A DNA stretch of 64,000 bases from Antedon mediterranea (lineage: Eukaryota > Animalia > Echinodermata). A program made the translations under genes and the position numbers. The stretch's first letter is position 1. Each line of letters begins with the position of its first letter. This document shows positions 6,918 to 60,873 of the stretch, piece after piece. The notes under the pieces are model-generated. The model saw only the letters and a list, made by a program, of their open reading frames with translations, made no database searches and was not told the origin of the DNA. Location of the stretch: NCBI RefSeq assembly GCF_964355755.1, contig NC_092679.1:4866201-4930200 (forward strand). Reading direction: 5' to 3'.

Positions 6918-8834
6918 ATAGCCATTAAGGCTAGTGGCAAATAAAGCAAATACATTTAAAGATATTATTATTGTATGAGATGATTATCGTTGTGGAGAGC
7001 CTCTCAAATGTTATTTTTGTTACAACATTTAGGTAATCCTGCCTCATTGATAAATGATATGATAAATATGATATGTATTTAAAGAATATTACCTAAATAT
7101 TTTACTGAATAAATAGTAGCAATTACAGAAAATCTTTCATTTTTTGTTATTCAGTGTATTGTTTACATATAAGGACATCTTATTCATTTCAAGACATTAA
7201 AACAAATATTTGGTAAACGAATTCCAAACAATCGAAAGGTAAATGAAGAGATATCACAAATAAATACATTGAATTCATTCGTTATTAAATCATTACGGCC
7301 GTATCAGGGAAACTGAAAATCATTATTTATATGTCTATGTCTTTTCAATGGAGTCAATGGTGACCAATTCAATCTTTAAAGTCATTTAGTAGAGGAAACT
7401 CAGATTTACAGGCTTAGGCCAAAGTAGTAATGAAATATGAAGTGTAAAATCTTTTATTACGACCGTACTAAAATTAAACATGGATTAAGGAATAGAAGGA
7501 TTTACATCGACGGTGACATCAAACGATATCCCAACGCGCTTACATACAAAAGCACTTCTGCGTGCCAATCATGGAGTTATTAATTTTATAACTCCATGTG
7601 CCAATTATGGAACTGCTGACTCTTGTAGTTAAAGTAATCGTATTACTTTAGCAGTCCCATGACCAATTTCATATTTTTACATTGTATATTATGTTTTGTT
7701 GGTCAAATAAATAAATGAAATTAAATTAAACAAACACGCTCGTTGAACTTCCGTGTCTCTAACCGCGGCCCTTTATAGAACGCTGAGAATCAACTGTTAC
7801 ATTTTTTTTAGAACAAAACGAAGCCATGTAGAAATCGTATGCGCAGTCTGATTGTTCTATTGGCATGTCTGCGTCGATGATTAGTTGACAACAACAATAT
7901 ATTTCTTTTCCAAACGCGAAAGGATTATTTCGTACACGAATTTTTATTCAATAGGCCTACGAATATTCCATTTCGATTAATATATTTAATTTTATAAAAA
8001 CTTCACTGTGCTTTGACAAGAATATGTGTTGTAATATATGGTCCCAGAGCATATAAAAGAGTTACGACATTGAAGATTAGAAGCCATTAAAAGTCTCTTT
8101 TGTATATGGCTTTCTGTGTGTTTTTTTAGAGCCATAATTATATATATGGCTCTGTTTTTTTTACACAAACTGCGCCGCCAACGTTATTAACATTCAGAGA
8201 CTCGTTCATCATTTCATTTGTAATAATTTGCCTTTATTATTTAAATATTGTTCATACCCTTTTCAGTATATTAACAAATATATCCACAAAACTTTATTAT
8301 TTTATTTAGTCATCATAGCATGGATTATGAATTGAAAATATTACATAATTGTTATTAATACGACGTAGTTATGGGATGTTTTGTTCCAAAACCAATCAAT
8401 CGAACTTTATAATGTACTAGCGCACGCGCGCGCAATATTCTTTGCCGCAACTACTTCTGTACGCTGTGCACATCGATATTTCATCGTAAAATGTGCAATT
8501 ACATTTAGAAAACTACAACCATTTGTCAATAAACATAGGCCTACACATCATACAACGTACATGTCTAGCCTTACAAATTTTTCAAAACTTTCTATTATTT
8601 AAAAGTCGAAGATAGCCAGGTCTCGGGTCCATTCTATTGAATTGTCGCCACAGATTGATATCTTCATCAGTACTTCTATGAATGGATGATTAGGTGGGAA
8701 CACGAACGCTAGTTGATCATACCCAGTACCGTTTGATCATACGATTAATCGGGAAACCACCTCACGACATTTTTTTAAATATAAGAAGTTGAAAGTATTT
8801 TGTTGCTCCTATACTTTACATGCATTAAGGGAGA

Positions 8835-9930
8835 CAAGTTGTCTGTGTTATCGGGCGTTCCGCAGGGCTCGATCCTGGGCCCGCTTTTGTTTAATTTATT
8901 TATCAACGATCTTCCTTTAAAATTTAATCATTCCGAGTCTCTTTTATTTGCTGACGATCTGAAATTGTTTAAAGTGATTACCACTCCACAGGATGCTTTT
9001 TCACTTCAGGAGGATCTGGATGGTCTCGTGGAATGGACGGAGAAGTGGGGGATAAAACTTAATGCTAATAAATGCAAATATTTATCAATAACACTTAAAA
9101 AAAGGCCTGTGCTCTTCAATTATAATCTGAGTGGACATGATCTTGAGATGGTTTATGTATGGAAAGATTTAGGTATTTTTATTGATAGTAAATTAAATTT
9201 TTGTTCACATATTAATCATGTGTTGTCAAAAGCTAATAGAATGATGGGCTTAATATGGAGAAATTGTAGGTTTATGAACGACGGCAGGGCACTTTTATCT
9301 TTATACAAATCTATTATACGTCCTCACCTTGAATATTGTTCCGCAATTTTCAATTCAATTTCTCCATGTCAGGCCCGTCGAATCGACACTGTTCAACGGA
9401 AGTTTGTTCGATTCCTGTCTTATAACTGTGTTAATTTTGCCTTTTCCATTGATTCTGTCAGCAATCGTCGAACGATATCTGATATGGTTTTTTTATATCA
9501 TATTTTAAATTCTAAATATGACTGTTCATTAATTTCACTATTTAGTTTAAATGTTCCTGGTCGTACACGAAATAGACATTTATTGCATATTCCTTTTAGC
9601 CGTGTCGACTGTACTAAGAGGGGACTTTTTCATAGACTACCTTATACATTTAATAATCTAAATAGCAATCATATCGATATTTTTAATGATAGACTTGGTT
9701 ATTTTAAGAGGACGATGATGTGTTCACTTCTTGAACAGTCTGCATAACCTGTTTTAATTGAAATTTTTTATGGCATGCCAATCTATGTTTTATATATATA
9801 TATATATATTTTATCTGTATTTTATTGTTAACCGTTTTTGATGTTGTATTGTTTTATGTTTCAAACCTGTTAGTGGCGGTATTTATCGCTGTTGGTTTTG
9901 ATTGAATAAAATAAAATAAATAAAATAAAA
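8835..9930 (+). mobile_element. 5'-truncated LINE (CR1/L2/Jockey group), C-terminal half of reverse transcriptase plus 3' UTR
   Basis: Uninterrupted ORF with SGVPQGSILGPLLF, LLFADDLKLF, KDLGIFID and IRPHLEYC motifs; stop at 9747; (TAAAA)n tail at 9906-9930. Confidence 0.93.
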
Positions 9931-32500: not shown

Positions 32501-35500
32501 GTTACTGAACATTGGTGGTTAAATTTAAACCAGTGACATGAGCTTTGACAGTAAATTCACATCCAAACATACAGTGTTAGGCCTATTATACTTACTTGAC
32601 ACTTATACTAGAGACAAGTTTAGTTTGTGCTATCAACAGTAATAATATACATTATATAATTATATTATTTTTGTAAAGTTTATATCTTTCACTAAATCTG
32701 GTAAGTTACTGAACATTGGTGGTTAAAATTTAAACCAGTGACACGAGCTTTGACAGTAAATTCACATCCAAACATACAGTGTTAGGCCTATTATACTTAC
32801 TTGACACTTATACTAGAGACAAGTTTAGTTTGTGCTATCAACAGTAATAATATACATTATATAATTATATTATGTTTGTAAAGTTTATATCATTCACTAA
32901 ATCTGGTAAGTTACTGAACATTGGTGGTTAAAATTTAAACCAGTGACATGAGCTTTGACAGTAAATTCACATCCAAACATACAGTGTTAGGCCTATTATA
33001 CTTACTTGACACTTTATACTAGAGACTAGTATACATTTGAAGTTATATAGTCCAGATAAAGTGGTATAACGCCTGCGATATGATTTGACATTTGCATTAA
33101 CTGCATGAGTGATAACGTATTAGCTTATTTTGAATAGTGCTACCTGTTATGAAAAGTGTATAGAATAGTTGACAATTTGACATAACACCAGGATTTAATA
33201 TTATTATTATTGTATAGATTAACCTTCAATAATATTAGGTTAGGTGAGTTTAGAAAGTGACATGCAACAAACCTCTCCCGAACGGTGGCAAAGTATGGAA
33301 CAAATGTTTAGTAATGTTTGTAAACAGTTAATTATTCTTGTAATAAACTGTAACATTTATTCTTATTCTTGTTATTTAGAAAGGTTCTTTAAACTATGGA
33401 ATGTTCACATCTGAAGAAACCCACATCTCTTCCTAACTTTTTGTCAAACTCACAAAATGTTTTGAAATACGGTCTATCAAAAATAAGTGTCTTTGTCATT
33501 ACAGTGTTGCATTAGTCAGAAATTTCATTAAGAACAGTTAAATCATTACCAACAAAACAATTGTGTGTTATATTGTTGATTTTAACGGTCCATTAAGGAT
33601 TTAGGCCCGTCGATAAGTTATGAAGGTGTGGTTACATGGCTGAACTAATTTGGTAGAAGTTCAGTTCGGTTGCTTAACCATAATCGTCATAACCATGATA
33701 CCATAGGCTATACTGATTTGAGACCAATTATATCGATTATCGATCCACCAAATCGATCAACAAGAGATATTGGATTGATAATCTCATCTCTTAAAATTCT
33801 CCCATCTTTCCACGGTTCATGTTTCTACGTACACCTACACCATTTATTTATTGTTTGTCGTCAGATTTTCCTACATTCTTTCTTGCTTGTCCAGGTCGCC
33901 CGTTAAGCGCTATATTAGGCCTTTACACTGTAATTTACCAAATGCACTGCTAATTTTTTATTTTAACAACCAGAATTTTTTTCCCCAGAATGTTCTTTTG
34001 GTTCTAACTTACTCGGTGGTTAGGAAAACTTTGTACTCACAATAAGAAATGTTACGTTTCTTTTCTGTTAAAGTTTCGGTTTGTTCCTAAAATAATTTTA
34101 TTGTGGGCTTTTATAAATTATATATTAAATAAAAAAGTACTACAGTATCATTAAATCGATGCAATTATATATGCCTATAAATCCTTATATCTAATAAAAA
34201 GACAAATACAACACTATTTTGTTATATATCAACATGTTCAGTCAGAGAACGTCTCGAAAGATTAGGCATTAGTTCTGTATAACACCATTATTAAACACGT
34301 ACTTTTAATAATACTCTATTGTAACGATCAAGACAAGGATTTCAAGATAATTTCTGTAATACGATAATCATATTCTGTCTCGATACACGCCGAAGGGCAT
34401 ATCGGTTGAGTTAATAATTTCAATTACTTTCGAAAAACGAAACAAGGATTTGTGCCTTATAATCGTTCACCTGGAAATATTCAATTCATCTGTATATTTT
34501 TGCATTATTGTTGGTCTTTTAGGTAAACTCCTTTCTTCTTTCATAAATATTTACTCGCATACCGATTCGTTCAAACACCGTTGTTATCAATGCCTCAAAC
34601 GGCTTTATTACTGTATTTATTATACTTGACCTCTAAAGAATCAAATGGTTGTAATCTATTTTTGATACCACTGAATTGTAACTAAACAGTACACGACAGA
34701 TTACGTCGTAGAAAATGTTAACATTAATGTTATATTATTGATGAATGAAGAATATTTAATATTTTATATTCAACAAGGTATATTTATTATATATCAAAGA
34801 AATTATACAACCAACGAAAGGCTGAAATGAGTACAATTTACAGATATAAACACAATTATTGTACATTATATAAACATTAAAACAAACATGTAGCATGGTT
34901 GTTCTCATAGTTAATATATAACTTCAATTGTATTATATAAATGGGGACATGAAGTGACTGCTCGATATTGAATTAAAGAACTTGTCAATGTTTATTTTAC
35001 AGAAAATGAGGCATATGCTTGGTTTTTAAGACGCTCACATCCCGGTAACAACGCAGAATTATTGAAAAACGCAATAACTATTAAGAAAAGGGTAAGTATA
35101 CACCACAACTGTTCTTATTTTTTCTTCTGCATGCCTACCTCTCTTTACCGGTTGATTCCCAGAAAGATGCACAATTACGTAAGGACGTACGCGCAACGCA
35201 AGTCATTTTACCAATCACAAATGGTCTAATGCGAACTAAGCTTAAGTTAAAATGATAAATTCTTATAACGAAGTTACATTTGTATAGGCCTAGTCATGGA
35301 GAAAGATATAGTTATACATTCAAATTAAAGTCTTTGTTTTTACTTCACAGGATTCTTCGGCTGTTTTAACAAATGTTTCAAATCGTGGTACAACTAGCCA
35401 CGAAGACGAACTCGTAGAAAAACATGTACTTTTAAATGAAGATCGAAGAAATTCGTCGCTTGGAGTACACATTGCAGGCAGCATAGAAAAAGGAATATTC

Positions 35501-38500
35501 GTCAAGCACGTTGTAGAGGGCAGTATTGCTGAAAATTCTCAAGTTATATTCCAAGGCAAGTATGAGGTTTCTGTGATAAAATAAAACTTAAGAAATAACA
35601 CGATTGCGCTTCTGTATTCCAAAGTATGATGTACATTTCATGTACTTTTTTAGAGACATTGTTTTATAACAATTCATTATGATGTTCAGTTTATTGAACA
35701 CTTTCCAGGCAATTCGTTTGGAAATTGCTGTCGAAAAGCTAATGGTTCCCACCAGGTCACGACGCAACGCAAATTATTTGACCAATCACTATGATAATTG
35801 TCAAGTTGCGCGCGCGTACATCCTTGTGTTGCGTCCTTTAGTGGAAACCAAGTACTGTAACAGATCATCCGAACTGTCCCAATGTTATTGATTAAATTAT
35901 AGGGCCTACAAGCTTTAATATTACAGACAGTTATTAAATAACATTTTTTTGTTTTTATAGGTGATCAAATATTGAGTGCTACAATACATTTTGAGGAAAT
36001 ATCCTACCCAGATGCCCTCAGTATTCTACAACTATCGGCAAAATACAAATTTGAACTTCATCTACAAGGTTCACCAACACCACCAGCAACTGAATTCAAT
36101 CAGCCACAAGCGTTTGAAACTATCCCAGAGCGTCCACTGGAGACGCCTATGATACCAGAACTGTTTGTAAATGCTGAAAGCCCATCAGAGTTACCTGAAG
36201 GAAATACGCTAAGACAGGCTAGCTCTTTACCGACTATCTATGAGCCTCAGTCTAAATTGAATAAACTTGTGCCTTTTGAAAGGACAACTTCATTACCAAA
36301 GTCTGTGGCAATAACTCACCATAAGCCTGCCAGTTCAATAGATAGTGGTGCTGTTTTTAATGACAATGACGCAGAAATTCAACTCGTGACATCTTCAATA
36401 AACTCAATAGTAGATTCTGATTCAGATGACGTCATTGACTTTTCAGAGCCAATAAATGCACTTAACCCTGACCTCACGCATTCACGTAACGAGTCCGATA
36501 CACCAGGATCTATACAAAGCCTTTCAATTTTTGATTACAGAACTCCGTCGGTGTTAAGTAACGAATCAAGTGAAATAATATTACCTACAGAAAGTACATC
36601 TTCACTTGGATCAAATACTGAAATTAATTCTTTAACACCGACTGATCATTCAGCTACAGAAGAAGATATTGATACAATTGACGAATTACCTTTTGAACTC
36701 AGAGAACGAATATCTATTCCACGTAGCCAGAGAAGCTCAATCAATTCGTATATACCCGCTGATCTTGGTGATTTTGTTAGCGAATTCGAATTGGAAATGA
36801 GTTTGATTAGTTCAAATAACAGTGAAAATGAAGTGTTTTTTTCCAAATATAATGAAAGTCGTGAAGAAGTCGACGAAGATGCTGCAACCTTAAATTCTAT
36901 AAAACTTGTTGATGAACAAAGCATTGATAAGAAAACAAACAATAGTGAAGATATAGGAGATCTTGCAGCTGCCATCCTCGATTGTAAATCCACTAATAAT
37001 ACAGATAAAGAAGACAAGAAACGTTACTCTTCCACTCCTATTTCGAAAGATACAGGAGTGAACAACGATAATGTTGTAAATAGTGGAAATGTATTATCAA
37101 ATACTTCGAATAGCAATAAAGAAAAATATGCTTCCGACGATATGTTAGCTGATACAAACATAAGATCTTCTTTATTTGATGAAGTTAATGGTAATAACAA
37201 AGACAACATTGGACATGACAGTTCTGAAATCAAACACCCGGTGGACAAACCAAAAGCAAGGGTAACGTTTTCTCTAGACAGAAATACAGAGAAACATTAT
37301 CCGAAAAAGAAATCTGGATTTGGATTTCATTTACCAAAGCTTGGTCGAAAACATTCGCCAAAGGATAAAATTAGAAAACAGACAGAAGAAACTGCAATGG
37401 CGGATAAAGCGACAGAGAATGTGGCGAGTGTAAGTGATGTCTTTGATGTTAAGACTTCTGGACTTGAGAATTTCAGTGAGGGCGTTGATACGCCAGATAC
37501 AATTGTAACAAGTACAGTACAAACGGAGGCCAATGCGCCAACCACCGTTGTCAATACTGCAGAAGGAGAGGTTGTTGTAACTTTGCGTTCAAAAAAGAAA
37601 GATAGTTCTCTCACCAGAAAAGTAAGCAGTCTTCTTCGGAATTCGTTTGGAAGTCGACTCTCAAAAGCAGAGATTAATTCAGATAGCAGCTCTGACGAAG
37701 ATGTCAATCCAGATGTTAAAATTGAAAATGAACCTGTTGAAGTAAAGAAAACTCATTCCTTAAACTTTTTAAAAAGAATGTCTAAAAATCTGGACGTGGA
37801 AGCTAGTGAAAGTATTCCTGTAAATAATAAGCAAGCGAAAGAAAGAAAGAAAGTAACTGTTGATAAACTTGACAGCAATATTCAAGAAAAAGATGTGGCA
37901 AGTGAACCCCATGGTGCGCATGTACTGGGGATGTCAGTTGACGACAACGAAGAAATGCAACAAAAGCTCGAATCTTTAAAAATAACAAAGTCTGGTAGTC
38001 TTGGTAGAGCACTGAATGTTTTTAAACCAAAACGTCAGACACGATTTGCTGCCGATATGTTTGATACTGACGAGGATTCTAAATCGTTACCTGGAACTCT
38101 ACGAAAAAGCACAGGTGAGTTCCAAGCATTAGAAGCTGCCATATTGTCTGGTTCCATTGACGATATTCTATCACCGATTACAAATTTAGAAACCTATGAA
38201 GAAAATGAAAAGGCTGCCGTTGACGAAAACGTGGAATTAGACTTTAAAGAGAAACACGAACCAAGCGAACAGAATAAGTTTATTGACACAAATGAAACTG
38301 CGACGAGTGAACAAATATCATCTGAAAACACGTCTAATAGTAACATTGATACAGCCTTAGAAAATGATTTCGTACTTGCCATAGAAGACTCACAGGATTA
38401 TAATACGGTCAACAAAACTGAGGATGAAATTGTTCATGATCTGGCCGTACACGCCATTGAATCAGCTATTGCTGAAACTAAAATTGATCATAAGAATAGA

Positions 38501-41500
38501 AGTTTTGAGTTAGGAGCGAAGGAAGAAATTACGGCTATGAAAGAACAGCACAGTATGTCAAGGATGGATTTCTTTGGAGTATCATACAGTGACCCTTCAA
38601 ATGACCCAGTATCACCAAAGTCGGATGTCAATTCGAATGATCTGGAAGTTACAAGTGACTTTGAATTCGGTATACAAGCTGCAGGTGACAGTAAAGTTAA
38701 GCACAAAGAGGAAAGTAGGAATGATAACAGTAACACTAACAATAGTAATGACGGTTCTAGCAATAGCAGTAACGATGGTAACAGTGGTAGCAATAACGAT
38801 AATAACCATGGTAGCAGTAACCATGGTAGCAGTAACGATAGTAACAGTGGTAGCAGTAACGATAGTAACAGTGGTAGCAGTAACGATGGAAACAGTAATA
38901 ATAATAATAACAACAACAACAATAACAGCAAAGAAAAAGCGTCCAATGAAAACACGAACGACGAAGAGAAAGAAGAAGTCAAACCTCACAAAATTAAAAA
39001 TAAGGATACCAACGTATTTAATTTAAATAATAATGCAAATGAGAATGAAAATACAACAGATGATACCAATGCTAGTGGTGCAACAAAACAGTCAAAGGGT
39101 AAAGACAAACAAAAGAAAGCGAAAAACAAACGAAAACCTGACGAAGGGAAATTGCCAATTCCAAGTAATCTTACATCTTCTAGTCCAGTTGATGATCAAC
39201 CAGCAATTGTTTTGAAACAAGATGTAAAAAAACAGAAGAGAGGTGGATTTGGAAAGTTATTTGGAAGAAAAAAAAATAAACGCCCTCCTCCAATAGGCGA
39301 GAATGAAGAAGTACATCAGTTTACGTCTGAAGAAGCTGTTAGTTCATTTGAGGACACGGCAACCGGTGATGCATCTTCATCGGCGAGTGGCACTGATAGC
39401 ATAGATTCTAGTTCAACTAAAATAGATGGGCAAAACAACGGTGGTAAATCAAATGGTAAAAAGAGAAGAGCTCCGAAACCACCAATAACGGAAGAAACAC
39501 CGACTCCAACAACACCGGAGAAAAATGAAGATTCGCCATCTAAAGACAGACATATCTATTATAAACAACGATCATTGGATATGCCTGATAATGGCCAGCA
39601 AACACCAACAAAAACCTGCACCAAAACGTATACGCCACCAATACAGAAGAAAATATTAATGAAGAAATCATCAGCACCATTGCCACATGAAAGTGACATG
39701 ACCAACTCGCATTCATTACCAAATCTAAGCAATATAAGCTGTTCTTCAGATCAGGGTGTATTTGATATGTCAGCTTCGATCCACAGTAATGAGGATAGAT
39801 CTCTATCTGGCAGTGGATCGAATCTGTCGCAGCTTTCGGTTGAGGTAAAGAAACTTCCGCTTCCAAAAGGAGCGGCACCACCAAAACCAAAACGCCGCCA
39901 ATCTTCAGATATTCATGACGATAATACAGCGGATGTGAGTGAAACTGATGTTATTACAACACCAATGTCGGACGTTTTCAGTGACAATGATTCGCTACTT
40001 TCGGAGATATCACGGTCACTTAGCTCGCCTGAAATGATGAGGTCTGACGTATTTGATAATGATGATACCAAAACAAATGACACAACATATCAAAAGGATA
40101 AGGAAACACCAAAAATAGATAAGAAAAGTGATGTTCCACCTGAGAAGAAGGATAACGATGGAGATACACGCGTTGAAGAAAGGAAGAAACAGACGATAAA
40201 ACATGAAAACGACAAAACCGTTAAGTTAAATACCCCTCAAGTTAATACAAAGATAATTTCTCCAACTATAGAAGAGGAAAGTCAACCCGGACTTCAGACG
40301 TTTTTGCGTACAGGCCAGGCAACTAACGATGCCTTGAAATTTAAACAATCTACTGAAGTGAAAACATTGATGCAGAAGCTGTTAACGAGAGAGGATAAAG
40401 AATTAACTGAAAAGAAATCTGAAACCACTGAAAGCAAGTCCGTGAAAAAGAAGAAAGAAATAAAGTTGCAAAGAACATATGCCTTGGACAATGTAACCAC
40501 ACCATCGCCTTCAGAAACTGAGAAGAAATTAACGTTGGACAAGGACACGCCGCCTTCAAAAATACTTGGTACTTTACGGAGTTCTAGTCAGGAGATTGAT
40601 ATTGAAACTGATGCAGAACCTATTGAAGACAGCAAGCCTATAGTTAGTCCGACTGGTTCGAGGCTGAAGAAAAGGCTTTCTGCATCTCAACTTATATCTT
40701 TAGATGGAGATAGTAAACAACCTCGATCTAAGCCAAAAAGTCGTACGGTATCATTTGATGACACAACGGAAGTAATCCCGGATAACGGCTATATAGAAGA
40801 GCCTGAACGACCCGGAGAGCAAACAGATGAGAAAGTAGAAACAGTTACCAATACTAAAGCACAAGTTACATCTCATGAGCCCATGCAATTTCAAGAAACT
40901 CAGAAACCGAAAACAGATACAAAAGAGGATGATGCCAAACAAAACACTACAACAACTTTCAGATCGAAGAGGCCCGTAAGTCTGTATGATAAATATGCAG
41001 CAACACCACGAATAAAGAAATCAAATAGCAGTGTCGGTGCAGAAATTGTCTCACAAACGACGCAGGAAGAGTCGAAAGAAGAACTTAGTGAACTAGCATC
41101 GTTAAGTGTAGTGAAGTCATACGCCAGTATGTTTGGTCAATCGAAAGCAACATCGAAGTGGAAAAAAACTGCTGGTGTCGGATATTACAAAGATGTACAA
41201 AGCAAACCAGAATCTGAAGATCATGGTTTGAAGCACACTGATGAACTGGCACATGTTAAACTTAAATCTACAAATGTTTTACAGGCATTGATCAAAGAAG
41301 ATATTCCTGACACTAAACCGACTGAAGTCACCTTACCATTATTGAAGCTGGACAAACAAAAACTTGAAACTCTTGAACCAAAGAAAACTCAAGCGACAGC
41401 AGTGAAAAAGACGGAAGTTAAAGAACCAGCCAAGACTACGACACAGCCATCATGGATGGATGCAGTGAAAGCAGCAAAGGCTGCACGTAAAGAAAAGGAG

Positions 41501-43474
41501 AAAGAAGGAAGACCTCAACCAGTTAAATGGAGCGACAGTGACATTCCAGACTTTTCCAGTCTTATCAATATTAGAAAGAACAAAGTACGATCAACCTATG
41601 GCGTACCAGATGAGGAGAATAACACAACAGTTTTCGACTCCACTGTCGACAAAAATACTACTGTACCAGTATCTAATGCAGAGAACGTTGATGTTATGGG
41701 ACTGTTGGCTAGTAGAAAGAAAACCCGCCTTTCTACTTATGAAGAAACAGATGATGTTAAAAATCCGGAACAATTTATAAAACCAAAAAAGTCGTCGATA
41801 ACTGAAGCAAGTCCGTCAAAGATAGATGTCAAAAATGATCATAGCAAAGAAGATAAATCAGAACCTATCGAAGAGGTATGTATTAAGGAAATCGATCAGA
41901 AAATAGAAAGCATAGCCAGTGCATCTAGTAGTGATACCGATAAGGACACTAACAATTGTTCTGATATCGCCTCTAGTCCCGTTTCGGACGACAGTTGTCC
42001 ACAAACAAGACCAACACGCAGCTTGACAAACAGTACTATTTTAACAACAAGTGAAAAGAAAACTATAGATAATGTCAAACAAGAACTCACAGACTCAGCG
42101 AAACCGATGAGAAAACGATCAGATACAACTGGTGATGAAACCCCGTCTGTTTTTGCTGTAATTAAAAACAGACTGAATGAAATAAGCCTTAGTAATAGTG
42201 ATGACAGGGAGGAAAAACTTAGGAAGATTCGTGAACGAACACAATTAATATTAGCTGGATTCAATTCGAAAAAAGATAAAGACCAACAAGAGAAGTCGTC
42301 AGCAGACGACTCCGTCATTAAGAGAGAAACGCTTTCACAAGAACAGAAACAACGGAGAAAGACTATACAATCAGTACCTATGTCTATACAATCTGAACTG
42401 CAGATGAGAGATATAAATGTCAGTAGTACAGCCAGTGAAGATACACTGGAACCTGACAGTGAATCGCAGCAAGAATTTCAATTAAAAGAAATTACTCCGG
42501 AAAAGAAGGTGAATCGTAAGAAAATGTTGAAATCGTATGCTCAGCAAAAAATACTACAAATCGAGACTTCAGGAAATGACGCTTCAGATGAGGATGACTC
42601 TGTTGTTGAAGTTGAAAGGTCAACTAAATCCTCAACACCACAACGATCATCGTCAATTAAGGCGCGCGATAGAAACAGCGCGCGCAGTATAACTTCAAAC
42701 GATTATTATAGAGTTGCTGAATCAAGAAGTAGTGGGTATAACTCTTTCTCTGATATCGGAAGCCCAACTTATACTAGTAGTTCGATAGAATACGAAGAAG
42801 AAAAACGCGATAGTACAATACGAAGAATAAAATCAATGACACACGATGAGCTTCAAAACTTTGTGTTGAAACAACAAAGAGAAATGCAAGAACTGCGAAG
42901 AGAAATTAAAGAATCGGCAAAAAAGAAACCAGAACCGGAAATTTCAAATTCGATTGAAGCATCAAGTTCTAAATCTGAAACGAGGTCTAGGGAATCATCT
43001 GTATCACAGCAACCTCAAATGCCTATGATGTTTATTCCACCGGGAATGTTTATGATGCCGGGAATGTTTCAACAACCAGGAATAGCAAATCAAATGACGC
43101 AACAACAACCAATCATGCCACAACCGCATTCAACCATGATGCATCAACCAACTACCATAACACAACCACACGCAATGCCTACAGGTTCTATGCAACCAGC
43201 AACTGGAATGCCATCGCAACCAGGTCTTGGTATGATGCCGCAGATGGTATCAGGGATGGTACAGCAACCACAGCTTCAGGGAATGGCAGATCCTGCGATG
43301 ATGCCTCTTCTATACCAACAGCAGCAAATGATGCAGTATCTTTTGCAGACCAATCAAACTGGTGGTGTTCCAGCTGCTACTAGTAAACAGACGATTCAGG
43401 GAGTAGGCGGCTATTTACAGAATGAACAGACTGCTACTGAACCCGTTCCTAATACTACATTTAAACACGTTTAG
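29504..43474 (+). CDS. Giant (~2614 aa) AHNAK/AHNAK2/periaxin-family PDZ protein with a long disordered tail
   Basis: Exons 29504-29540 (MGNSCCVGHQRK, phase 1), 35003-35091, 35351-35555 (LGVHIAGSIEKGIFVKHVVEGSIAENSQVIFQ, GC donor) and 35961-43474 (GDQILSATIHFEEISYPDALSILQLSAKYKFELHLQ...). The PDZ matches the periaxin/AHNAK2 signature GIFV...EGDQLLS...FFEN.KYEDAL..LQ...YK. The 7.5-kb exon is fully open. The first exon is the least certain. Confidence 0.85.
32412..33026. repeat. ~204-bp tandem triplication in intron 1 of the PDZ gene
   Basis: Units start aagtttagtttgtgctatc at 32412, 32616 and 32821 and are nearly identical. Confidence 0.95.
38720..38930 (+). repeat. Coding low-complexity Asn/Ser/Gly/Asp tract
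   Basis: Repeats of agtaacgatagtaacagtggtagc and (AAT/AAC)n encoding NDSNSGSS...NNNNNNNNNN. Confidence 0.9.
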
Positions 43475-49135: not shown

Positions 49136-50630
49136 ATGGCAGCCGCACTCGGTGCAGTCAAATCGTTGTCATCAATCACACCAGATGAGGGCAACCAGCT
49201 GTTAGAGTTCGACTCAGCGATTGTCATGATACAGTCACGGCTGCCTGTGCTACTAGCATTACTTGCTATACTACGAGATACGTTTGGTAAATATTAAATC
49301 GAGAATATACAATACTGACACTATACCACTACCTTGGTGCATCCTGGTCACTTAGTTAGCAAAACTAGGCTATAATGGAAAGTGGACTTAGTTTAGGAAC
49401 TTTGTAATCTGTGAGATTGAGCGTTGTCTAAAGCTCTGTCTACAGGCTATCAAACTGTATGTGACAACAAAATGTGATGTGGCCATATGGACATGATGTC
49501 ATATCACTACCATATTTGGGCATATCACTATACCATATTTAGGCACACTTTAAAAAAAAAAGAGTTTACAAGCGAGAGAATTCGGATGATTTATCGCGTA
49601 CTCATATTACACGTCCTTGCGTTGCGCCAAATCGCGTCGTATTAGTTTAGTTTAGTTTAAATGGGTAATGATAACGTCATTGCGTTGCGCAATGGGAACC
49701 AAGCTTTTATGAAAGAGTGACTGTATTTCTTTGTTTTTCATAGGTGACTCTGGTACCAAATGCTACCCACCCGAATACGTCAGTAACACAGAGAGTGTGA
49801 AGTATATCAACGCATACTGTACTTACAGAGAGAACGACGATCTCATCGGCTATCACGAATTCGTACCCTTCTCGTTCACTTTACAGGCTGTTTTAATACA
49901 GATTCCTATACTTATATGGATCGCTTGTGGCGGTAGAAAAATATCAATGGTGGCTATGTGGTTTGCTAAATGTTGTAGAGAGATTTGTTCAGAAGCCGAA
50001 TTCCCGATCAAGTCTGACACCGTCGCCGATGAAGACGACGGCGGGGCAAATAGCAATGATCGTAGAAACTGGCCTAAAGTACATTCAATCATGCAATGTT
50101 ACATAAACGAATGGTCCGTGTCTCGTACATATGTTTTAGCGTATTTTTTATGTAAGGTCCTACTTTGCTGCGCGACGTGCGCGTCTCTGACTTACCACTA
50201 CCTGTTACTACGAGTCACCATTGAGCCTTATTTTCTTAACAACGAATTTTCTTGTGACGTAGAAGACTTGAATACAACTATAAACTGTATCAAACCGTAC
50301 GAAATATTCAACCAGATTTTGATTATCATTGATCTTGTTCTGTGCCTTGCCCTACCACTGGCCGTGATCATTTTAAGAGAATCTCGGTTGCTTTTAACCA
50401 TGTTCTGCGGATGGCAAAAGAGCATCTCAGATTTTATACCTTTCTTAGAGATTCCAAAAGGAGCATTAAGATTTAATAATACAAATATACTGGCAATGTA
50501 CTACAAAGAAAATATTGGCTTAGACGAGAAATACGTTCAGAAGATATTAGTACCGTGGAAAACGTCAGTGGCAAAGACTAATGAAGTTTGTTTGAACGAA
50601 CTTTGTACTACTGAGAAAACGTGTTTTTGA
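49136..50630 (+). CDS. Pannexin/innexin-superfamily large-pore channel, paralog A (~345 aa)
   Basis: Coding exons 49136-49286 (MAAALGAVK...LEFDSAIVMIQSRLPVLLALLAILRDTFG) and 49744-50630. Four TMs; EL1 C-YPP...YINAY-C; HEFVPF...IPILIW (compare PANX1 HKFFPY...LPPLFW); EL2 EFSC...CIKPYEIFNQIL; no LRR domain. Confidence 0.88.
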
Positions 50631-50864
50631 TAATCACCATGCCATTGGCTGGTCCCGGCTCAAGTTTTAACAACTGGTCAACTGTACCTCAATAGTACTT
50701 TAAGTAAAACGCAATAATATTCCACCTGACGTGCATTACCGCAATCACATAAAATGAAAAAGAAGCACTATAATAACATATGACGTCCATTGGCGGTTTA
50801 AATATCGACATGACCGCGCTGAGCATAATATTTACGGATGAATTTTGATAGTTGTGTATGTTAA

Positions 50865-51383
50865 AGATGTATTGTCCCTTGAAACACAAAAAACGAAGGT
50901 CAAGATATTCTAAATTTAAATTGGCCATATCAAAGTAATACTAAAGTTATTCACTTTAAGTCGAAAATTCGAGCCAAAAAACAAACATTTTACGTAATTA
51001 ACAGCTAAATTAATTTGATTACACTGTCTGGAAAATCGTCGCAAGCGAAAGTAAACAAAGATTTCAAACCATGAGTATACATTATGCATGATGCTAATTA
51101 GGATTGTTTACAACTCGTCACGGTTGAGAAGGTGTTTTCACACAGATCGCGAGGAAGTTTTATGATTATGCATACAGAGTAGCTAAATAAGCGCGTTGCA
51201 TTATGAGATACGTTTTGACTGGAAGTCAAATTATTTTTTGAACCAAAAAACGTCTGTATTTTAGTTAGATGATTTTTTTTTCGACTAATTTTTGGTGAAA
51301 GTTAATAACTATTATGATACTTCAAAATGACCCACTTTTTTTTCGATTTTTTTTTTTTAATTTGACAAAGGGACAATACATCT
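50865..51383. mobile_element. Kolobok-like MITE
   Basis: Perfect TIR agatgtattgtccctt / aagggacaatacatct with TTAA on both sides. Confidence 0.8.
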
Positions 51384-52370
51384 TTAATATAACCTCATCT
51401 AATAATGTGTGGTATTTGTATATAGTATTTCGATTAAGCAACACATGTATTCGATACCTATTTAATGAAGACATGTTTTGCAAATACATTTTCATTCTAA
51501 TAAACCAGTATATGTGAATATTTATTGGGTTGAGACTGCCTCAGGTTAGTCCAGTGTGATCTAGACGTATTTACAGGGCCTTTATATCAAGTTCTAGTTG
51601 TATTAAGTAATCCGAATAAATATAAAGCACAAAATTAATCAGATGACGTTTTAATGTGTTATCATTCAGTGTGAAATTGGTTTAAATAGTACTGTTATCT
51701 CGGCCATCCAGGGTAGGCCTGGAGTACAACAATTGATGTGCGACACAATACACAATACGGTAGTAATAAATACAATACTTTAAAAATAACAGATTCGTTC
51801 GTTTCAATTACGATCATGAATACATTTGGCATAATATTGTAGCGTCTCACATTCTGTGCGCGCTAGGGCTTAACTTAAAAATAATTATATATTCTAATAG
51901 AAATCCAAAGAAATACCACTGAATATATGTAACAATTAAATTGATATAAATAGATCTATACATTTTGTTTAGATACCGTATCGGCATTTTTGACTGTAAA
52001 ATAGAAAAATATCATGAAATGCACTTTTTCAATATGTTCACACGGTGGACTGTTTTGAGGAAGTAAAATAAATGCTTATTCTGCCACCGTATTTAGCAGT
52101 TGCTGCGACTAAAAATTGTTTCGTGACATTTTACAACAGAAAATAATATAATATTGTATTTCACGGTCTCCTCTCAAAGTTAATTGAGTGTTTTACGGTA
52201 AGTTTTAAGCCATCTATACAGGATAGTGTATTGTGCCTATTTATATATATTTTGTTAGAGGTTCGAAAGAAAGCTCTATTGATCAAGAACTCATTTTGTT
52301 AGTATAGGCAAACACTTTGTATAGTTTTTAAAATTGATATTTGTTATTATTATATTTTATAATCTTTAAT

Positions 52371-52950
52371 TAGTATAGGCAAACACTTTGTATAGTTTTT
52401 AGTATAGGCAAACACTTTGTATAGTTTTTAGTATAGGCAAACACTTTGTATAGTTTTTAGTATAGGCAAACACTTTGTATAGTTTTTAGTATAGGCAAAC
52501 ACTTTGTATAGTTTTTAGTATAGGCAAACACTTTGTATAGTTTTTAGTATAGGCAAACACTTTGTATAGTTTTTAGTATAGGCAAACACTTTGTATAGTT
52601 TTTAGTATAGGCAAACACTTTGTATAGTTTTTAGTATAGGCAAACACTTTGTATAGTTTTTAGTATAGGCAAACACTTTGTATAGTTTTTAGTATAGGCA
52701 AACACTTTGTATAGTTTTTAGTATAGGCAAACACTTTGTATAGCTTTTAGTATAGGCAAACACTTTGTATAGTTTTTAGTATAGGCAAACACTTTGTATA
52801 GTTTTTAGTATAGGCAAACACTTTGTATAGTTTTTAGTATAGGCAAACACTTTGTATAGTTTTTAGTATAGGCAAACACTTTGTATAGTTTTTAGTATAG
52901 GCAAACACTTTGTATAGTTTTTAGTATAGGCAAACACTTTGTATAGTTTT
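52371..52950. repeat. 29-bp minisatellite, 20 near-perfect copies
   Basis: (tagtataggcaaacactttgtatagtttt)n; one isolated copy at 52300-52328. Confidence 0.97.
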
Positions 52951-53122
52951 TAAAATTGATTTTTTTTATATCTTTACTTTGTAACCTATATTAATACTTT
53001 TTTAAAAATCCAATTGAAAATGTTTAGTAACTGAATCAAATATATTATTTGTTTATTATTATGTTGCTAATTATGGATTTTTTTTTACAAACTTAGACCT
53101 AATTGCATTTCAAATACGGACG

Positions 53123-54437
53123 ATGTCAGACACAATTGCTGAAATCACATCGTTGTCTTCGCTTATTGCATATGAAGGACACCGACTTCTACGGTTTGAC
53201 TCGGTGATTCTTATGTTACAAACACGGCTGCCTTTACTACTGGCTGCATTGGCTTTGATACGTGACACGTTTGGTAAATATAACTAAATATCTATAACAT
53301 TCTCGCACTACCGTATACTGCATGCTTATTGTTTTTCAGTTCTTCGTGTACATAATTCTATGAAAATGATTTTATTTGTGTCCCTTTCTTTTCTTAGGTG
53401 AAATGTCGATTACGAATTGTTACGCACCCGATTTCACTGGAACAGAGAATAAAGCCTTTGTTAACGCATATTGCAAGTACAGGGAAAACCTAGGGCTACT
53501 CGGATACCACGAATTCATACCGTTCACCTTCACCCTCCAAACTGTTTTGATACAGGTTCCCGTACTTACCTGGATTTTTCTTGGTGGTAGAAAAATGTCA
53601 ATGGTGGCTGAGTGGTTTTCCAAATGCTGTAAAGAAGTTTGCTCAAAAGAAAAAAAATGCCCAGCATCGACAAGTAAAAATGACAAGCCTACTCGAGAAC
53701 CTCATTCAATAATGCAAAGTTACATAAAAAGATGGTCTAAATCATGCACGTATGTTATAACTTATTTCGTCTATAAGTTTTTCCTTTGCATTGTAACAGG
53801 TTTGTCTCTGTATTATCATTGTCATATGGTCAAAGTCACAATTGAGCCAAATTTCTTCAACCACGAATTTGAATGTTACGTAGAAACCGTAAATAAGACG
53901 GTTACCTGCGTCAAACCGTACGAAATATTCAACCAGATATTAATTATCATTAACATTGTGATATGCCTTGCAATACCACTTTTTCTAATAATTGTTCATG
54001 AATGTAATGTGCTTTTTAAAATGTCCCGTGAAAATCAGAACATTTCGAATTTCTTACCTTGCCTTGCCTTGCCAAATAAACCAAAATTGTTTAATAATAC
54101 GAAAATACTCTTAATGTACTACGAAAGAAATATCGATCTGGATGAGAAATACGTTCAGAAGATAATAGGGTATAAACAAATTAATGGGCAGGAAGAAACT
54201 AATGGGCAGGAAGGAACTACTGGGCAGGACGAAACGAAAGGGCAGGACGAAACGAAAGGGCAGGACGAAACGAAAGGACAGGACGAAACTAAAGGACAGG
54301 ACGAAACTAATGGACAGGACGAAACGAAAGGGCAGGACGAAACTAATGGGCAGGACGAAATGACAGGGCAGGACGGAACTAATGGGCAGAAAGAAAATGA
54401 ACGTCTACTTTCTTTTTGTTGTACGATCAATACATAA
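53123..54437 (+). CDS. Pannexin/innexin-superfamily channel, paralog B (~396 aa) with C-terminal hexapeptide repeats
   Basis: Coding exons 53123-53273 (MSDTIAEI...LQTRLPLLLAALALIRDTFG) and 53398-54437; same four-Cys pattern and motifs as paralog A; (GQDET[K/N])n tail. Confidence 0.88.
54185..54390 (+). repeat. 18-bp coding tandem repeat, ~11 copies, GQDET(K/N)
   Basis: (gggcaggacgaaacgaaa / ggacaggacgaaactaat)n, in frame in paralog B. Confidence 0.95.
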
Positions 54438-54864
54438 CCCAACTACCTTGTGGTTTCCGCTGGTCAAACACTATTTTTTGTTGTATAATCTTACTCATTT
54501 TAACTTGGATCTTGATTGTAATTGACAAAACTCCAGCATAATCATGAAGCTAAGTTTACTGTAAAACATGGGTAGTTGCTAAAAGCAAGCGACATCCGTC
54601 TTGTAATTAGTGTTGAATGTTAGAATGATTTCTATTACCGTATTTATCCTGATTCATTATAAGTATAAGCAGTTGTAGTGATTATTTACACACGTCATTC
54701 GGTTTTAGAATTAGATTAAGTGTATTACATAGAATTAGACAAATATATAAACTTTTCAAACAGGACAGGCGTGAATAAGAACATTTTTACTTGACGTCTC
54801 TGAGGCAGAAATCATGAATAATTCATGAGATTAATTAGGCAAAAGTTAGAAAATGATAGAGGCA

Positions 54865-54907
54865 CTATAATAATAATAATAATAACAATAATAATAATAA
54901 CACTAAC

Positions 54908-54963
<56 letters not shown>

Positions 54964-55835
54964 GATTTTTATAGCGCACATACCACTCCAGAGTGCTCAA
55001 GGCGCATTTAAAAATAAAAAGAAATAAATCATACAAATTCCTGACAAATAAAATGCAATTTCTTTGGAGGGTCCCCATCCGTTGTCGTTCTGTCGCGGTC
55101 CCGGACCCCTACCTAGGTGACCAAACAAAGGAGCAGGATACACATTTGCCTTGCCACAGACGACCGGGTGCTCAGAGACAACAACCAAGACAGAGGCACC
55201 CCAAAGATAATGCTGGCCAGGAAAAGGTATACAAAACAATTCTAAGCCTAAAAAACTTTAAGAAACCTCATGATTTCCATATGCCTTAATGAATAAATGT
55301 GTTTTTAATAATTGTTTAAAAGTATCAGTTTTGCAAAATCTTATAGAGCTCGGTAGAGCATTCCACAGACGAGGAGCAGTAACGGAGAATGCTCTGTCAC
55401 CCCATGAGTGGTGAGACTTAGGCTGATGTAGAAGCAGCGAGTCACTAGAACGCAGATTACGTCCGGGAACATACAGCCTAAGCATGTCAGAAATATATTC
55501 AGGAGCCATGCCATTTATAGACTTAAAAACAAAGAGTAATATTTTAAAAACAATGCGGTACCTAACAGGGAGCCAATGAAATATTTCCAAAGTATTTGAT
55601 ATGTGTCCATAGCTGTATTTTGAATCAGTTGGAGCCTGTGGAGTTGTTTTTGTGGTAGCCCGTATAGCAAAGAGTTTCCCATATCCAGTCGTGAAGTGAC
55701 AAAAGCATGAACAAGTTGTTAGCTGCTGTCTCATTTATAAACTTGCGGATCCTTCGAATGTTTCGCAAGTGAAAAGACGACGCAGAAATAGTTTTTGAGA
55801 TATGAGAAATCATAGTCATACCCACATCCATTTCA
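54865..55835 (-). mobile_element. L2/Crack-type LINE 3' fragment, frameshifted
   Basis: Minus-strand ORFs with [44 protein letters not shown] and FKQLLKTHLF; L2-type 3' end gcgccttgag...gcgctataaaaat followed by an (ATT)n tail (54865-54962). Confidence 0.9.
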
Positions 55836-57657
55836 ACCCCAACCCCCTATTATAATAAATAGCTTCCCGTTTATTTTAGAACTGTAGTAGGTGTGTTATA
55901 AAACAAATAATGAATATGTTGTATTCGTTGAATGGAGAGAATAATTTAACTCGGCTCAAATGACATATTCTCACCATTTAAGTCATAAACATTCATTGTT
56001 TGTATAATAAGTTTAAATATTGCCGTGAATCAAATATATATTTCTTTGAATTATTCATTGCTGACATTATGTTATATTATTGACGATGTCACACAATGTA
56101 ATCATTTTTCCATTTTATACTACTATTTTAAGCCAAGAGGTTGGATCAGATATAGATCTGCTTGTATAGCCTAGAGAATATTGGTGAAGGGTGTTTAAGG
56201 ATGAGATGGTTTTGATTTGGATTATTGTAAGGGATTAACGGAGATTTCTTGATTGTAGGCTGTTATTAAATTGTTGCAAAAAATACCGTAATGGTTTAAT
56301 TTGTTTGGTTTTTATTGCACGTGTTACGTTTAAGCCTATACATCATTAGAATGTTTTCACCGTGCATATTGTGTGGAGCCACCTTGAAATACCTTGAATA
56401 AATCCCTTTTATGCCTAAACATGGCACGCTGCACAGTTGATGCCAATAGTAATAACCGCCACTTTCGGTTAAAAAAATCGTACTGAAAATGACGGGCGCA
56501 CGATGAAGATACGATTAAGATAACTTTACGAATTATTGCGACAGGTAAGACGTTTGCTACGATATATTACGACTGTACTTTGATTTCATTACGGCTTCAA
56601 TACGATTTTGTCAAGAAGCTTGATCATCTGTGAATGTTAACAACCATTGCCAAATCGTTTCTGGACCGAATTGTTCAAAAACTTTTTCGAAAACATTGAC
56701 GTAAACAAACTTTAATTGGAAATAATGTGAATTCAATAGGTGTGCGTTTTCCCCATGGCCTTATATGTACTTATTCATCGACAGCATTATGACTTGCCGT
56801 AGTGATTATCAACATTGTAATATTTCAAAACCAGCTTCCAATGTTTGAACAATTGAGTAATGCATACGGATTAGGTATAAAGACCATGGAGTATTTTAGG
56901 TTTAGTAATAATTCACCCGATAATTCACATACATTGTTGATCTTTCCGAATTCATTTACATTTGTTATTTGGGATTCTCGTCGTCATAGGACTGTGATTG
57001 TGCTCGTTAGGCTACTCTCTGTTATACATAATTCATTTATAGAATGATGGAATGAATAACGATATAAAAACGTTTATTGCTGGTGATTTCAATCATTTTG
57101 TTATAATAAAGTGGCAAGATCTAAATGTATGGAAATAAATTAGACCCTAATGGGTGGTCATATAGATTCACTAGACATGTTACAACTAACTGGGGAGAGG
57201 GGGAGAAAGAGAAAATAATAATCTTCTTCTATTTGGACCAATGACCCTGCAGGGATTGGTATCTAATCTTTTTTCACCAAGCTAATTAACTTCTCTCCAC
57301 TTGTTGATATGATATCGAAAGCTACGTAAAATTCCAGTGTTGTATAATTCAACATAACACGTAGGCCAGTAACGTTATCTCGATCGGAGACATTCAAGTG
57401 GAATTTGTTTGCGATGAACTAGTCTGTTTCCACAAAATACAGAGAATTCCCTGATTAAAAAGACCTGGATGATATTCAAAGTTTAATAATTAATTTTATG
57501 CATTATAATTGTCCTTGTGTTATCTATGTCTATGTTTATATCTATGTTTAGTTCGACATAAACGACATTCTTTCCAATACTCTAGTTTATAGTGGTTCCT
57601 AAGGAAAGTGAGAGCAGACATTTGTTATAGTCTTTAGGCCTACTAGTTACTAGCACG

Positions 57658-59954
57658 ATGGTCAGCGGCGCATTTGAAACAATTACCGCATTCTCATCAA
57701 TTACTCCAGTTTCAGGAGAGCATCTTTTAGAGTTTGATTCAGCCATTCTTAGGCTGCAGACACGACTGCCTCTACTTCTAGCGTTATTGGCTTTACTACG
57801 GACTACATTTGGTAAATATGACAATTACATTATATCAGGGCTATAATTATGCTATGTTACCTGTTACATACGTTTTTAGTTCATTGTTTTTAAAATGGAG
57901 AAATGTTTTTCCTGACCAAATGCAGACCTCCAGACTCTCCCGATTTCATGTCATCTGCTGCTCTATCCCGCTAAAATACAATTTCTTCCGATATTTTGGT
58001 TAAACAGAGAAAATATCTCAATAATGTATAAACATTAATTTATAATTTTGCTCATTTTTCGAAAAAAAAATGCCTGTACTATCCTCTAGATAGATAAGAG
58101 ATTTGAAAAAAATACTATAGGTGGTCTACCGGTCCATAAGATGGTTATAATAAAATTCATGCGTTGATTACGAAATACAGAGATTTTTCGCATTTTGGCA
58201 CGCCATGACATACCTATGTTTATAGATGCAAATATCTAACATGAGGAGTCGTGATTAATTCTGAGTGTTTGATATACATACATCATAAGTAGGGTTAAAC
58301 AGTTTACATTCTTCACTGGATTTCATGACAAAAGTTCATAAAAAAGTTATCCGTTATTTTTCCAGTACTCTTTTAAGCTTGGTTCACACTATATGACGCA
58401 ATGTAAGGAGGGAGACGCACCGTATCGGCGCCGCGCGCAACAGTGATAATTAAACTTCTCGTAAGATGAGAATGCGAAATTGACAGAAGATAATTCTATT
58501 ACGCTCTGCGTCGTCCAGGCGTTAAACGTTTTGCTGCGCCATTTTGGATGTTTTTTAAGTGAGTGACATTAATAAAAGGCACAATAAACATTGCGAATTC
58601 AGCCCGGAGATTGAGATTTCATACATAACTTCAGATTTTTTATTATTTTTTTTTTATTATTGATCATCATACGTGTATAGTTATAATACATAATATAATA
58701 CTCTAACCAAATAGATATTGATGTGAACCAAATAGATATTGATGTGAACCAAATAGATATTGATGTGAACCAAATAGATATTGATGTGAACCAACTAGAT
58801 ATTGATGTGAACCAAATAGATATTGATATGAACCAAATAGATATTGATATGAACCATATAGATATTGTTGTGACCAAATAGATATTGATGTGACCAAATA
58901 GATATTGATGTGATGCAAATATCTAACATGAGGAGTCGTGATTAATTCTGAGTGTTTGATATACATACGTCATAAGTAGGGTTAAACAGTTTACATTCTT
59001 CACTGGATTTCATGACGTACAAAAAACAACAAACATCATATTATTACAAGACTTCCTTTATATCACTTAGGTGGCACGGGCATATCATGTTACGCACCTG
59101 ATCTTAACGCCGAGAGTGTAAACTTTATCAATGGATATTGCCGGTACAACGAAAACCAAGGTGCATTAGCTGGATTTCACGAATTCATACCATTTACATT
59201 CATCCTTCAAACTATTTTACTGCAAGTCCCCGCACATGTCTGGATTTCCATTGGTGGCAAAAAAGTGTCAATGGTGGCTAAGTGTTTCGTCAAATGCTGT
59301 AAAGATAGCTGCTCAGAAGCTAAATGCCTCCCAAATCCTGACAGAAATTGGAATGGAGATAGTTGCTCTTTAAAAGATCTATCACACCCTACCACCAGCG
59401 CTGAAGTACAAGATTGTAGTAACTGGCCTAAATTCCATGAGGTAATGCAATATTATATAGACCAGTGGTCTAAATCGTCGAAATATTTAAACCGTTATCG
59501 CAACTGTAAATTAGGACTTTATGCTGTGACAATAATTATAATGGTTTGTTATTTTACTGTTACATTTGTGACAGTCGGATCAGATTTTTTTAACTACGAA
59601 TTCGAATGCTATGTAGAAGCGTTAAATTTTACGTCTATCTGCGTTAAACCTTATGAAATATTTAACGAGATTTTACTTATTACTAATATAGGAATATGTC
59701 TTTTATTACCACTGGTAATTATGATTGCTCGAGATATTTATTTGTGTGTCACAATCAAGTTTGGAAAGAAGCAAAAAAATATCACAGATTTTATACCTTG
59801 CATACGAATTCCAAACGAATCTAAAAGTCCTAATGATACAACTATGATTGTGATCTACTACCAAGAAAAGATTGGTCTAGACGAGAAATACGTTCAGAAG
59901 GTTTTAGTACCGTATAACGATAAGATAAAAACAGGCTTAAGCTCTATAACCTAA
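57658..59954 (+). CDS. Pannexin/innexin-superfamily channel, paralog C (~345 aa)
   Basis: Coding exons 57658-57811 (MVSGAFET...LQTRLPLLLALLALLRTTFG) and 59071-59954 (GTGISCYAPDLNAESVNFINGYC...FHEFIPF...EFECYV...CVKPYEIFNEIL...LDEKYVQK). Confidence 0.88.
58705..58911. repeat. 21-bp minisatellite, ~10 copies, within the duplicated segment
   Basis: (aaccaaatagatattgatgtg)n. Confidence 0.95.
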
Positions 59955-60394
59955 AGTCTACAATATAATAATATAATAATTATATAGTTGGAAAGTTTTT
60001 CCGTGGCGATTTAAAGTTTTGCAGTGACATTTTCAAACTCATTAAAAAAAGTTATCCGTTATTTTTCCAGTACTCTTTTAAGCTTGGTTCACACTATATG
60101 ACGCAATGTAAGGAGGGAGACGCACCGTATCGGCGCCGCGCGCAACAGTGATAATTAAACTTCTCGTAAGATGAGAATGCGAAATTGATAGAAGATAATT
60201 CTATTACGCTCTGCGTCGTCCAGGCGTTAAACGTTTTGCTGTGCCATTTTGGATGTTTTTTAAGTGAGTGACATTAATAAAAGGCACAATAAACATTGCG
60301 AATTCAGCCCGGAGATTGAGATTTCATACATACTTCAGATTTTTTATTATTGATCATCATACGTGTATAGTTATAATACATAATATAATACTCT

Positions 60395-60873
60395 AACCAA
60401 ATAGATATTGATGTGAACCAAATAGATATTGATGTGAACCAAATAGATATTGATGTGAACCAAATAGATATTGATGTGAACCAAATAGATATTGATGTGA
60501 ACCAAATAGATATTGATGTGAACCAAATAGATATTGATGTGAACCAAATAGATATTAATGTGAACCAAATAGATATTGATGTGAACCAAATAGATATCGA
60601 TGTGAACCAAATAGATATTGATATGAACCAAATAGATATTGATGTGAACCAAATAGATATTAATGTGAACCAAATAGATATTGATGTGAACCAAATAGAT
60701 ATTGATGTGAACCAAATAGATATTGATCTGAACCAAATAGATATTGATATGAACCAAATAGATATTGATGTGAACCAAATAGATATTGATCTGAACCAAA
60801 TAGATATTGATATGAACCATATAGATATTGATGTGAACCAAATAGATATTGATGTGAACCAAATAGATATTGA
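60395..60873. repeat. 21-bp minisatellite, ~23 copies
   Basis: (aaccaaatagatattgatgtg)n, preceded by the same ~350-bp unique segment as the array at 58705. Confidence 0.95.

Follow-up and report, generated by a model that had tools for sequence, protein, structure and literature searches.

What kind of channel do three tandem genes of the crinoid Antedon mediterranea encode, and how should the residues at the extracellular mouth of these channels be read? The genes, here called A, B and C, lie on the + strand of a 64,000-nt stretch of the genome (NCBI RefSeq assembly GCF_964355755.1, contig NC_092679.1, positions 4,866,201 to 4,930,200; hereafter the window), where they cover positions 49136-59954. 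An initial annotation had proposed that they are pannexin-type channels in which the selectivity triad of PANX1 is replaced by a charge-reversed one. Our analysis shifts the emphasis: the main interest of the locus lies in a pannexin-type lineage that is native to crinoids and one hemichordate, and most of the filter change, a single Glu excepted, is ordinary. We consider it probable that the products of these two-exon genes are large-pore channels that sit in a single membrane, are glycosylated and have a mouth that is wide, acidic and poorly selective.

Each gene consists of two exons separated by a GT-AG intron, with the same phase-1 break in a Gly codon after the first transmembrane segment (TM1). 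In the list below, EL1 and EL2 are the first and second extracellular loops, and the filter codons are those at the positions of PANX1 W74, R75 and D81, counted back from the second EL1 Cys.

49136..49286, + strand: gene A exon 1, N-terminal helix and TM1; GT donor, phase 1 in Gly51
49744..50630, + strand: gene A exon 2, EL1, TM2-4, EL2 and tail; spliced protein of 345 aa
49788..49811, + strand: gene A filter codons T66, E67 and N73 (T66/E67 at 49788-49793, N73 at 49809-49811)
50271..50279, + strand: gene A sequon N227-T-T in EL2, flanked by the two EL2 Cys and within the stretch that contains PANX1 N255
53123..53273, + strand: gene B exon 1
53398..54437, + strand: gene B exon 2; spliced protein of 396 aa, no internal stops
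53442-53465, + strand: gene B filter T-E-N (T/E codons 53442-53447, N codon 53463-53465)
53892-53900, + strand: gene B EL2 sequon
57658..57811, + strand: gene C exon 1
59071..59954, + strand: gene C exon 2; spliced protein of 345 aa, no internal stops
59109-59132, + strand: gene C filter A-E-N (A/E codons 59109-59114, N codon 59130-59132)
59625-59633, + strand: gene C EL2 sequon

The three spliced reading frames are free of internal stops, and their products are 47-52% identical to one another. The protein of gene A is identical in every residue to P0001, listed in RefSeq for Antedon mediterranea as XP_071962682.1 under the label 'uncharacterized protein'; genes B and C may be unannotated, neither having been returned by word-limited protein searches. 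A fourth paralogue was looked for in the window and none was found. The interval first assigned to these channels, 49760..59145, contains the filter peptides of all three but cuts off gene A exon 1 and most of gene C. The first intron of human PANX1 presumably falls at the matching Gly; a literature search gave no confirmation of this, and we did not use it as evidence. The tail of gene B carries about ten seven-residue repeats of Gly-Gln-Asp-Glu-Thr type (54170-54400), with none in A or C; the cytoplasmic loop of gene A has a group of clustered Cys (residues 127-132), kept in most of the crinoid proteins, which is a possible lipid or redox site; and a segment of 580 bp in the gene C intron (58340-58921) has a second, 95% identical copy just downstream of the gene (60045-60613).

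To which family do these proteins belong? All three have four hydrophobic segments, two Cys in each extracellular loop and a Pro in TM2. Gene A passes the cut-off of the Pfam family Innexin (PF00876; 37.5 vs 25 bits), as do four of the five proteins of the crinoid Anneissia japonica at 28.9-34.8 bits. P0003 and P0005, the latter from the hemichordate Ptychodera flava, fall below the cut-off; the sequences that do so still align to A-C, at 38-53% for crinoids and ~20% for P0005. Sequence comparison thus places A, B and C in the innexin/pannexin superfamily. Profiles resolve the relationship further: the alignment of a crinoid-only profile to PANX1 covers positions 23-314 (E 7.6e-13 to 8e-9), the profile reaches PANX2/3 with E of 3e-6 to 2e-5, and it matches INX-6 over 32-112 only, that is, EL1-TM2 (E 3.3e-4), while a profile of control innexins (described below) yields the reverse ranking, INX-6 (3e-73) ahead of PANX1 (1.5e-8). 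In Atlas, chordate pannexins account for most of the clusters nearest to P0001 and P0005. Judged by the reciprocal profile ranking and by Atlas, the crinoid proteins are closer to PANX1-3 than to protostome innexins, and the pannexin-type assignment made at the outset is upheld for all three genes.

Structural searches point the same way. In Foldseek with the model of A, pannexins lead (E 1.8e-6) and LRRC8 proteins follow from rank 47; VIA gives PANX2 a Z score of 16.6 (root-mean-square deviation, rmsd, 7.1; 251 residues aligned) and LRRC8 one of 14.2. Because these Z scores are close, fold alone separates pannexin from LRRC8 weakly. The Atlas model has a TM (template-modelling) score of 0.65. 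No LRRC8 match to the crinoid profile was found at E up to 1, and neither PF12534 nor a leucine-rich repeat (LRR) domain was detected. The crinoid proteins also lack the YYQW motif and long EL2 of protostome-type innexins, as well as the W74-R75-D81 filter and caspase-cleavable tail of PANX1 proper. A quick tree, from which 15 control rows under 250 aa were left out, joins the crinoids to Ptychodera (Shimodaira-Hasegawa-like approximate likelihood ratio test, SH-aLRT, 96) and holds them apart from 21 YYQW innexins (99); the five Anneissia genes form a group of their own (99), which suggests partly separate expansions in the two crinoids.

The distribution and condition of the genes indicate that they are the crinoid's own. 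Anneissia japonica has five annotated homologues, at 53-65% to A, and Ptychodera flava has one, the full-length P0005 (XP_070559489.1), which has no Pfam match and is recovered by the crinoid profile at E 5e-14 (3e-6 against PANX1). The contig in the RefSeq record of gene A is up to 25.0 Mb long. In runs X5 (organism A) and X6 (organism B), which belong to two studies, contigs join the two exons of gene A and leave out precisely its 457-nt GT..AG intron; this splicing is read from contig joints, the runs not being on record as RNA. Between gene A and organism B, 16 of 20 coding differences are synonymous (ratio of nonsynonymous to synonymous differences, pN/pS, 0.07; P 7e-8; the list is complete for 49743-50319, with up to three unlisted differences beyond): gene A is under purifying selection. 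Its intron contains a short, very high-copy repeat (49430-49550) that reaches a depth >100,000 in all four runs, and the neighbours of the cluster are an adhesion G-protein-coupled receptor (GPCR) gene and a PDZ gene. A, B and C look native. No homologue from a starfish, urchin, sea cucumber or brittle star appeared among the four matches of a single-sequence phmmer search of 1.84 billion representatives or in word-limited searches, which is a weak negative; 36 innexin queries reached A-C with a best E of 0.002 at proteome scale. The family was probably missed earlier because single-sequence searches, at thresholds such as 1e-10, fail to reach it.

We now turn to the extracellular mouth. Reading on the + strand confirms that the residues at -10, -9 and -3 from the second EL1 Cys are T-E-N in A, T-E-N in B and A-E-N in C, that the two EL1 Cys are spaced by 18, 17 and 16 residues, respectively, and, from the HMMER/PDB alignment, that these positions are in register with PANX1 W74, R75 and D81. 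For comparison we took metagenome loci that carry the YYQW motif of innexins (n = 121), of which 43 were open far enough upstream; six rows without both Cys were dropped, and the remaining 37 gave 29 distinct EL1 segments. These controls were chosen by YYQW from metagenome contigs whose animals of origin are unknown; 42 of 46 rows of one alignment matched Pfam Innexin. Trp at -10 and Asp at -3 are each absent from all 29, and Arg at -9 occurs in one, a doubtful and probably misread row. Asn stands at -3 in 25/29, a small residue (Gly, Ala, Ser or Thr) at -10 in 15/29, and the Cys spacing runs from 13 to 23; INX-6 has A-Q-N. The loss of the triad, the Asn at -3 and the varied spacing are thus all ordinary. 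The complete W-R-D triad is particular to PANX1, since PANX2 (R89/D90, with an acid at -9) and PANX3 (I74/R75/D81; PMC10997603) differ from it, as do innexins. The residues thus differ from those of PANX1 as proposed, but to speak of their replacement overstates the case, the triad being a feature of PANX1 and not of the family; pores 'tuned' by Cys spacing find no support, the spacing being equally variable in ordinary innexins. A further divergent pannexin-like protein (P0013 / P0006) has 24 residues between its EL1 Cys.

What sets the crinoid filter apart is the acid. Glu occupies -9 in all eight crinoid proteins (three from Antedon, five from Anneissia; related sequences, not independent counts) and in 2/29 control innexins, and it is the only distinctive part of the filter change. 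The hemichordate relative P0005 has D-S-N, without Glu. In the AlphaFold model of A (predicted local distance difference test, pLDDT, 74 overall and 91 over residues 61-70), the first extracellular helix spans residues 66-75 with E67 as its second residue, at the R75 position, which agrees with the placing of the Glu first proposed. A second acid, at position 61, is likewise invariant (8/8). The net charge of the crinoid loops ranges from 0 to -6 in EL1 and from -1 to -4 in EL2. Lys is found at -6 or -7, one turn from the Glu, in five of the eight, whose last 12 residues have a net charge of 0. In TM1, R35 and R47 are invariant in the crinoid proteins, where PANX1 has G44 and Q56.

Does this acid make the channels cation-selective? 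In PANX1, anion selectivity is lost upon R75E, R75A or W74A (PMC7108861), and the W74A mouth is ~12-13 Å wide (10.1101/2025.02.17.638584). By analogy, since none of the eight crinoid proteins has a basic residue at the constriction, an anion preference of PANX1 type is likely lost in them. The step beyond, to a Glu ring that acts as a genuine charge-reversed filter in channels of clear cation selectivity, we regard as possible and rather unlikely. It draws on the occurrence of the Glu in 8/8 crinoid proteins against 2/29 control innexins, on the second invariant acid and the net acidic loops, and on the shift of the PANX1 R75E reversal potential to -45 mV in N-methyl-D-glucamine chloride (NMDG-Cl; PMC7108861). 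However, PANX2 R89W, which still has Asp at -9, is non-selective rather than cationic (PCl/PNa ~1; PMC10043284), the Lys at -6/-7 can neutralise the Glu in five of eight proteins, the two invariant TM1 Arg may oppose it, depending on their orientation, and the hemichordate relative does without the Glu. Of the initial claim of a cation-preferring channel, then, the loss of anion preference stands as likely, and cation preference is not established. The expectation of a wider mouth unlike that of PANX1, and probably insensitive to carbenoxolone, is supported by analogy with W74A and other PANX1 mutants. Insensitivity to the drug is plausible in itself, yet it would be common to PANX2, PANX3 and W74 mutants, all insensitive or less sensitive (PMC10997603, PMC10043284).

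A different account has the Glu kept for structure, as a helix N-cap or in a salt bridge with the nearby Lys, with selectivity set elsewhere, for example by TM1 or the N-terminus, in a channel that may even prefer anions. The Glu is second in the helix and preceded by Ser/Thr in seven of the eight crinoid proteins, and Ser/Thr-Glu is a common pattern of helix start or capping. The invariant R35 and R47 fit this account, as does the destabilisation of the PANX1 heptamer by R75E, which reveals a structural role of the site (PMC10997603). Against it, effects on charge and on structure are compatible with each other, and a basic residue at the constriction is found in 0/8. We consider this account unlikely.

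The second extracellular loop bears on where these channels act. An N-x-T sequon lies between the EL2 Cys pair of all eight crinoid proteins, in the segment of PANX1 N255; in P0005 the sequon is in EL1, aligned with PANX2 N86. In PANX1, N255A permits gap junctions (PMC10997603), and the conserved EL2 sequon would by analogy favour non-junctional large-pore channels. No DxxD was found after residue 270 in the crinoid proteins. Starting from the gene models, the family assignment, the homologues in Anneissia and Ptychodera, and the splicing and purifying selection of gene A, we infer the remaining steps as follows. The proteins would assemble into oligomers as pannexins do. The first extracellular helix, starting at T66, would present small residues in place of the Trp ring and the Glu at the Arg75 site. 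With nothing basic left at the constriction, the anion filter known from PANX1 would be gone, leaving a non-selective or mildly cation-leaning pore that would pass ions and metabolites. The EL2 glycan, like that at PANX1 N255, would hinder docking into gap junctions, and gating would not proceed through caspase cleavage of a long tail.

Several observations weigh against this picture of glycosylated single-membrane channels from three native genes. Exon 2 of B and exon 2 of C, each taken alone, score below the PF00876 cut-off. The fold matches have TM scores of ~0.4 and an rmsd of 6-7 Å or more, with LRRC8 near (14.2 vs 16.6). YYQW innexins make up 36 of the 46 alignment rows behind the confident model, and a model from 10 rows is poor (pLDDT 48), with the first extracellular helix not formed. 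Anchoring on the upstream aromatic residue moves the register of A and B by one residue. The tree came from a quick search, has long branches and leaves out chordate pannexins. Invertebrate gap junctions are built from innexins both with and without sequons (PMC8769644). Finally, spliced B-like contigs differ from gene B by ~10%, and B and C are predicted genes. The contigs in question, from runs X5-X7, are ~90% identical to gene B over 53179-53938, and those of X5 and X6 share its splice site; further paralogues beyond the window are their probable source.

Could the family nevertheless have been expanded in crinoids to build gap junctions after the loss of canonical innexins? In favour are the expansion of paralogues in both crinoids, which junctional innexins also show, the electrical coupling of echinoderm cells (PMC6391747) and the fact that sequons are not always a bar to docking (PMC8769644). 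However, the EL2 sequon lies in the N255 segment in every crinoid protein, and coupling has been recorded in starfish, where our searches, weak as they are, gave no homologue. We therefore think a junctional role improbable. A bolder proposal, which we hold to be very doubtful, is that ambulacrarians never lost pannexins, that the gap-junction protein missing from echinoderms is to be found in this divergent lineage, and that its acidic filter explains why coupled starfish blastomeres pass current and exclude the anionic dye carboxyfluorescein. Single-membrane large-pore channels remain our preferred reading.

How do these genes stand with published accounts? In one survey, Antedon mediterranea (one sequencing experiment) and Ptychodera flava are tabulated without pannexins or connexins, and the loss is drawn at the base of echinoderms and hemichordates (PMC6391747); absence from echinoderm genomes is restated in another paper (PMC9949713). 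Echinoderm innexins have been reported from transcriptomes, with fragments only in hemichordates (PMC8769644); the eight supplementary files of that study name no Antedon, Anneissia or Ptychodera. A preprint judged all reported echinoderm innexins to be contamination and held that echinoderms most likely encode none (10.1101/2023.01.05.522624). With that precedent, contamination of our genes or their transfer from a symbiont (a myzostomid worm or copepod) deserves mention, but megabase contigs in two crinoid species, introns, a repeat and neighbours of host type, conserved sequence in a second organism and the lack of affinity to YYQW protostome-type innexins make it extremely unlikely. No report of crinoid homologues was found among the matches listed, in literature that includes few subscription journals; automatic Pfam labels are already attached to some of the crinoid proteins and their relatives.

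In published surveys the absence from echinoderms and hemichordates serves as an argument for a third gap-junction family, so far unknown. Pannexin-type genes that are native, spliced and under selection in two crinoids, together with their Ptychodera relative, overturn that absence for those lineages, a point that the initial annotation did not raise. Because no starfish or urchin homologue was found, the puzzle of echinoderm gap junctions is now testable, not solved: the crinoid genes are concrete candidates for tests of junctional coupling, and they supply a profile for re-searching urchin and starfish genomes. As natural pannexin variants without a basic residue at the extracellular constriction, they are also useful for questions of selectivity, ATP passage and drug block.

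Elsewhere in the window, positions 2258-6040 and 8785-9747 hold adhesion GPCR exons (GPS, 7tm_2) and a reverse-transcriptase fragment, and 35312-43474 a PDZ-like exon followed by a single low-complexity reading frame of 2510 codons.

It is instructive to compare the crinoid proteins with known large-pore channels. With LRRC8, the volume-regulated anion channel (VRAC), they share a fold class; unlike LRRC8, they have no LRR domain, PF12534 or sequence match, and their reading frames end at 345-396 aa. They resemble INX-6 and the YYQW innexins in matching PF00876, in the Asn at -3, the small residue at -10, the variable Cys spacing and lineage-specific expansion, but they lack YYQW, have a short EL2, are alike only in EL1-TM2, and stand separate in the tree. 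The acid at -9 recalls PANX2 D90, and the Ptychodera relative shares the EL1 sequon of PANX2; in contrast, PANX2 (R89) and PANX3 (R75) keep a basic filter residue that the crinoid proteins do not have. From PANX1 they differ in their ~18% identity, in the absence of W74, R75 and D81, in two extra TM1 Arg, in a short tail without DxxD and in their several tandem paralogues. PANX1 is all the same the protein that the profile matches best, along almost its whole length, and the crinoid proteins share with it four TM segments, four extracellular-loop Cys, a short EL2, the H-x-F-x-P start of TM2 and the EL2 sequon in the N255 segment.

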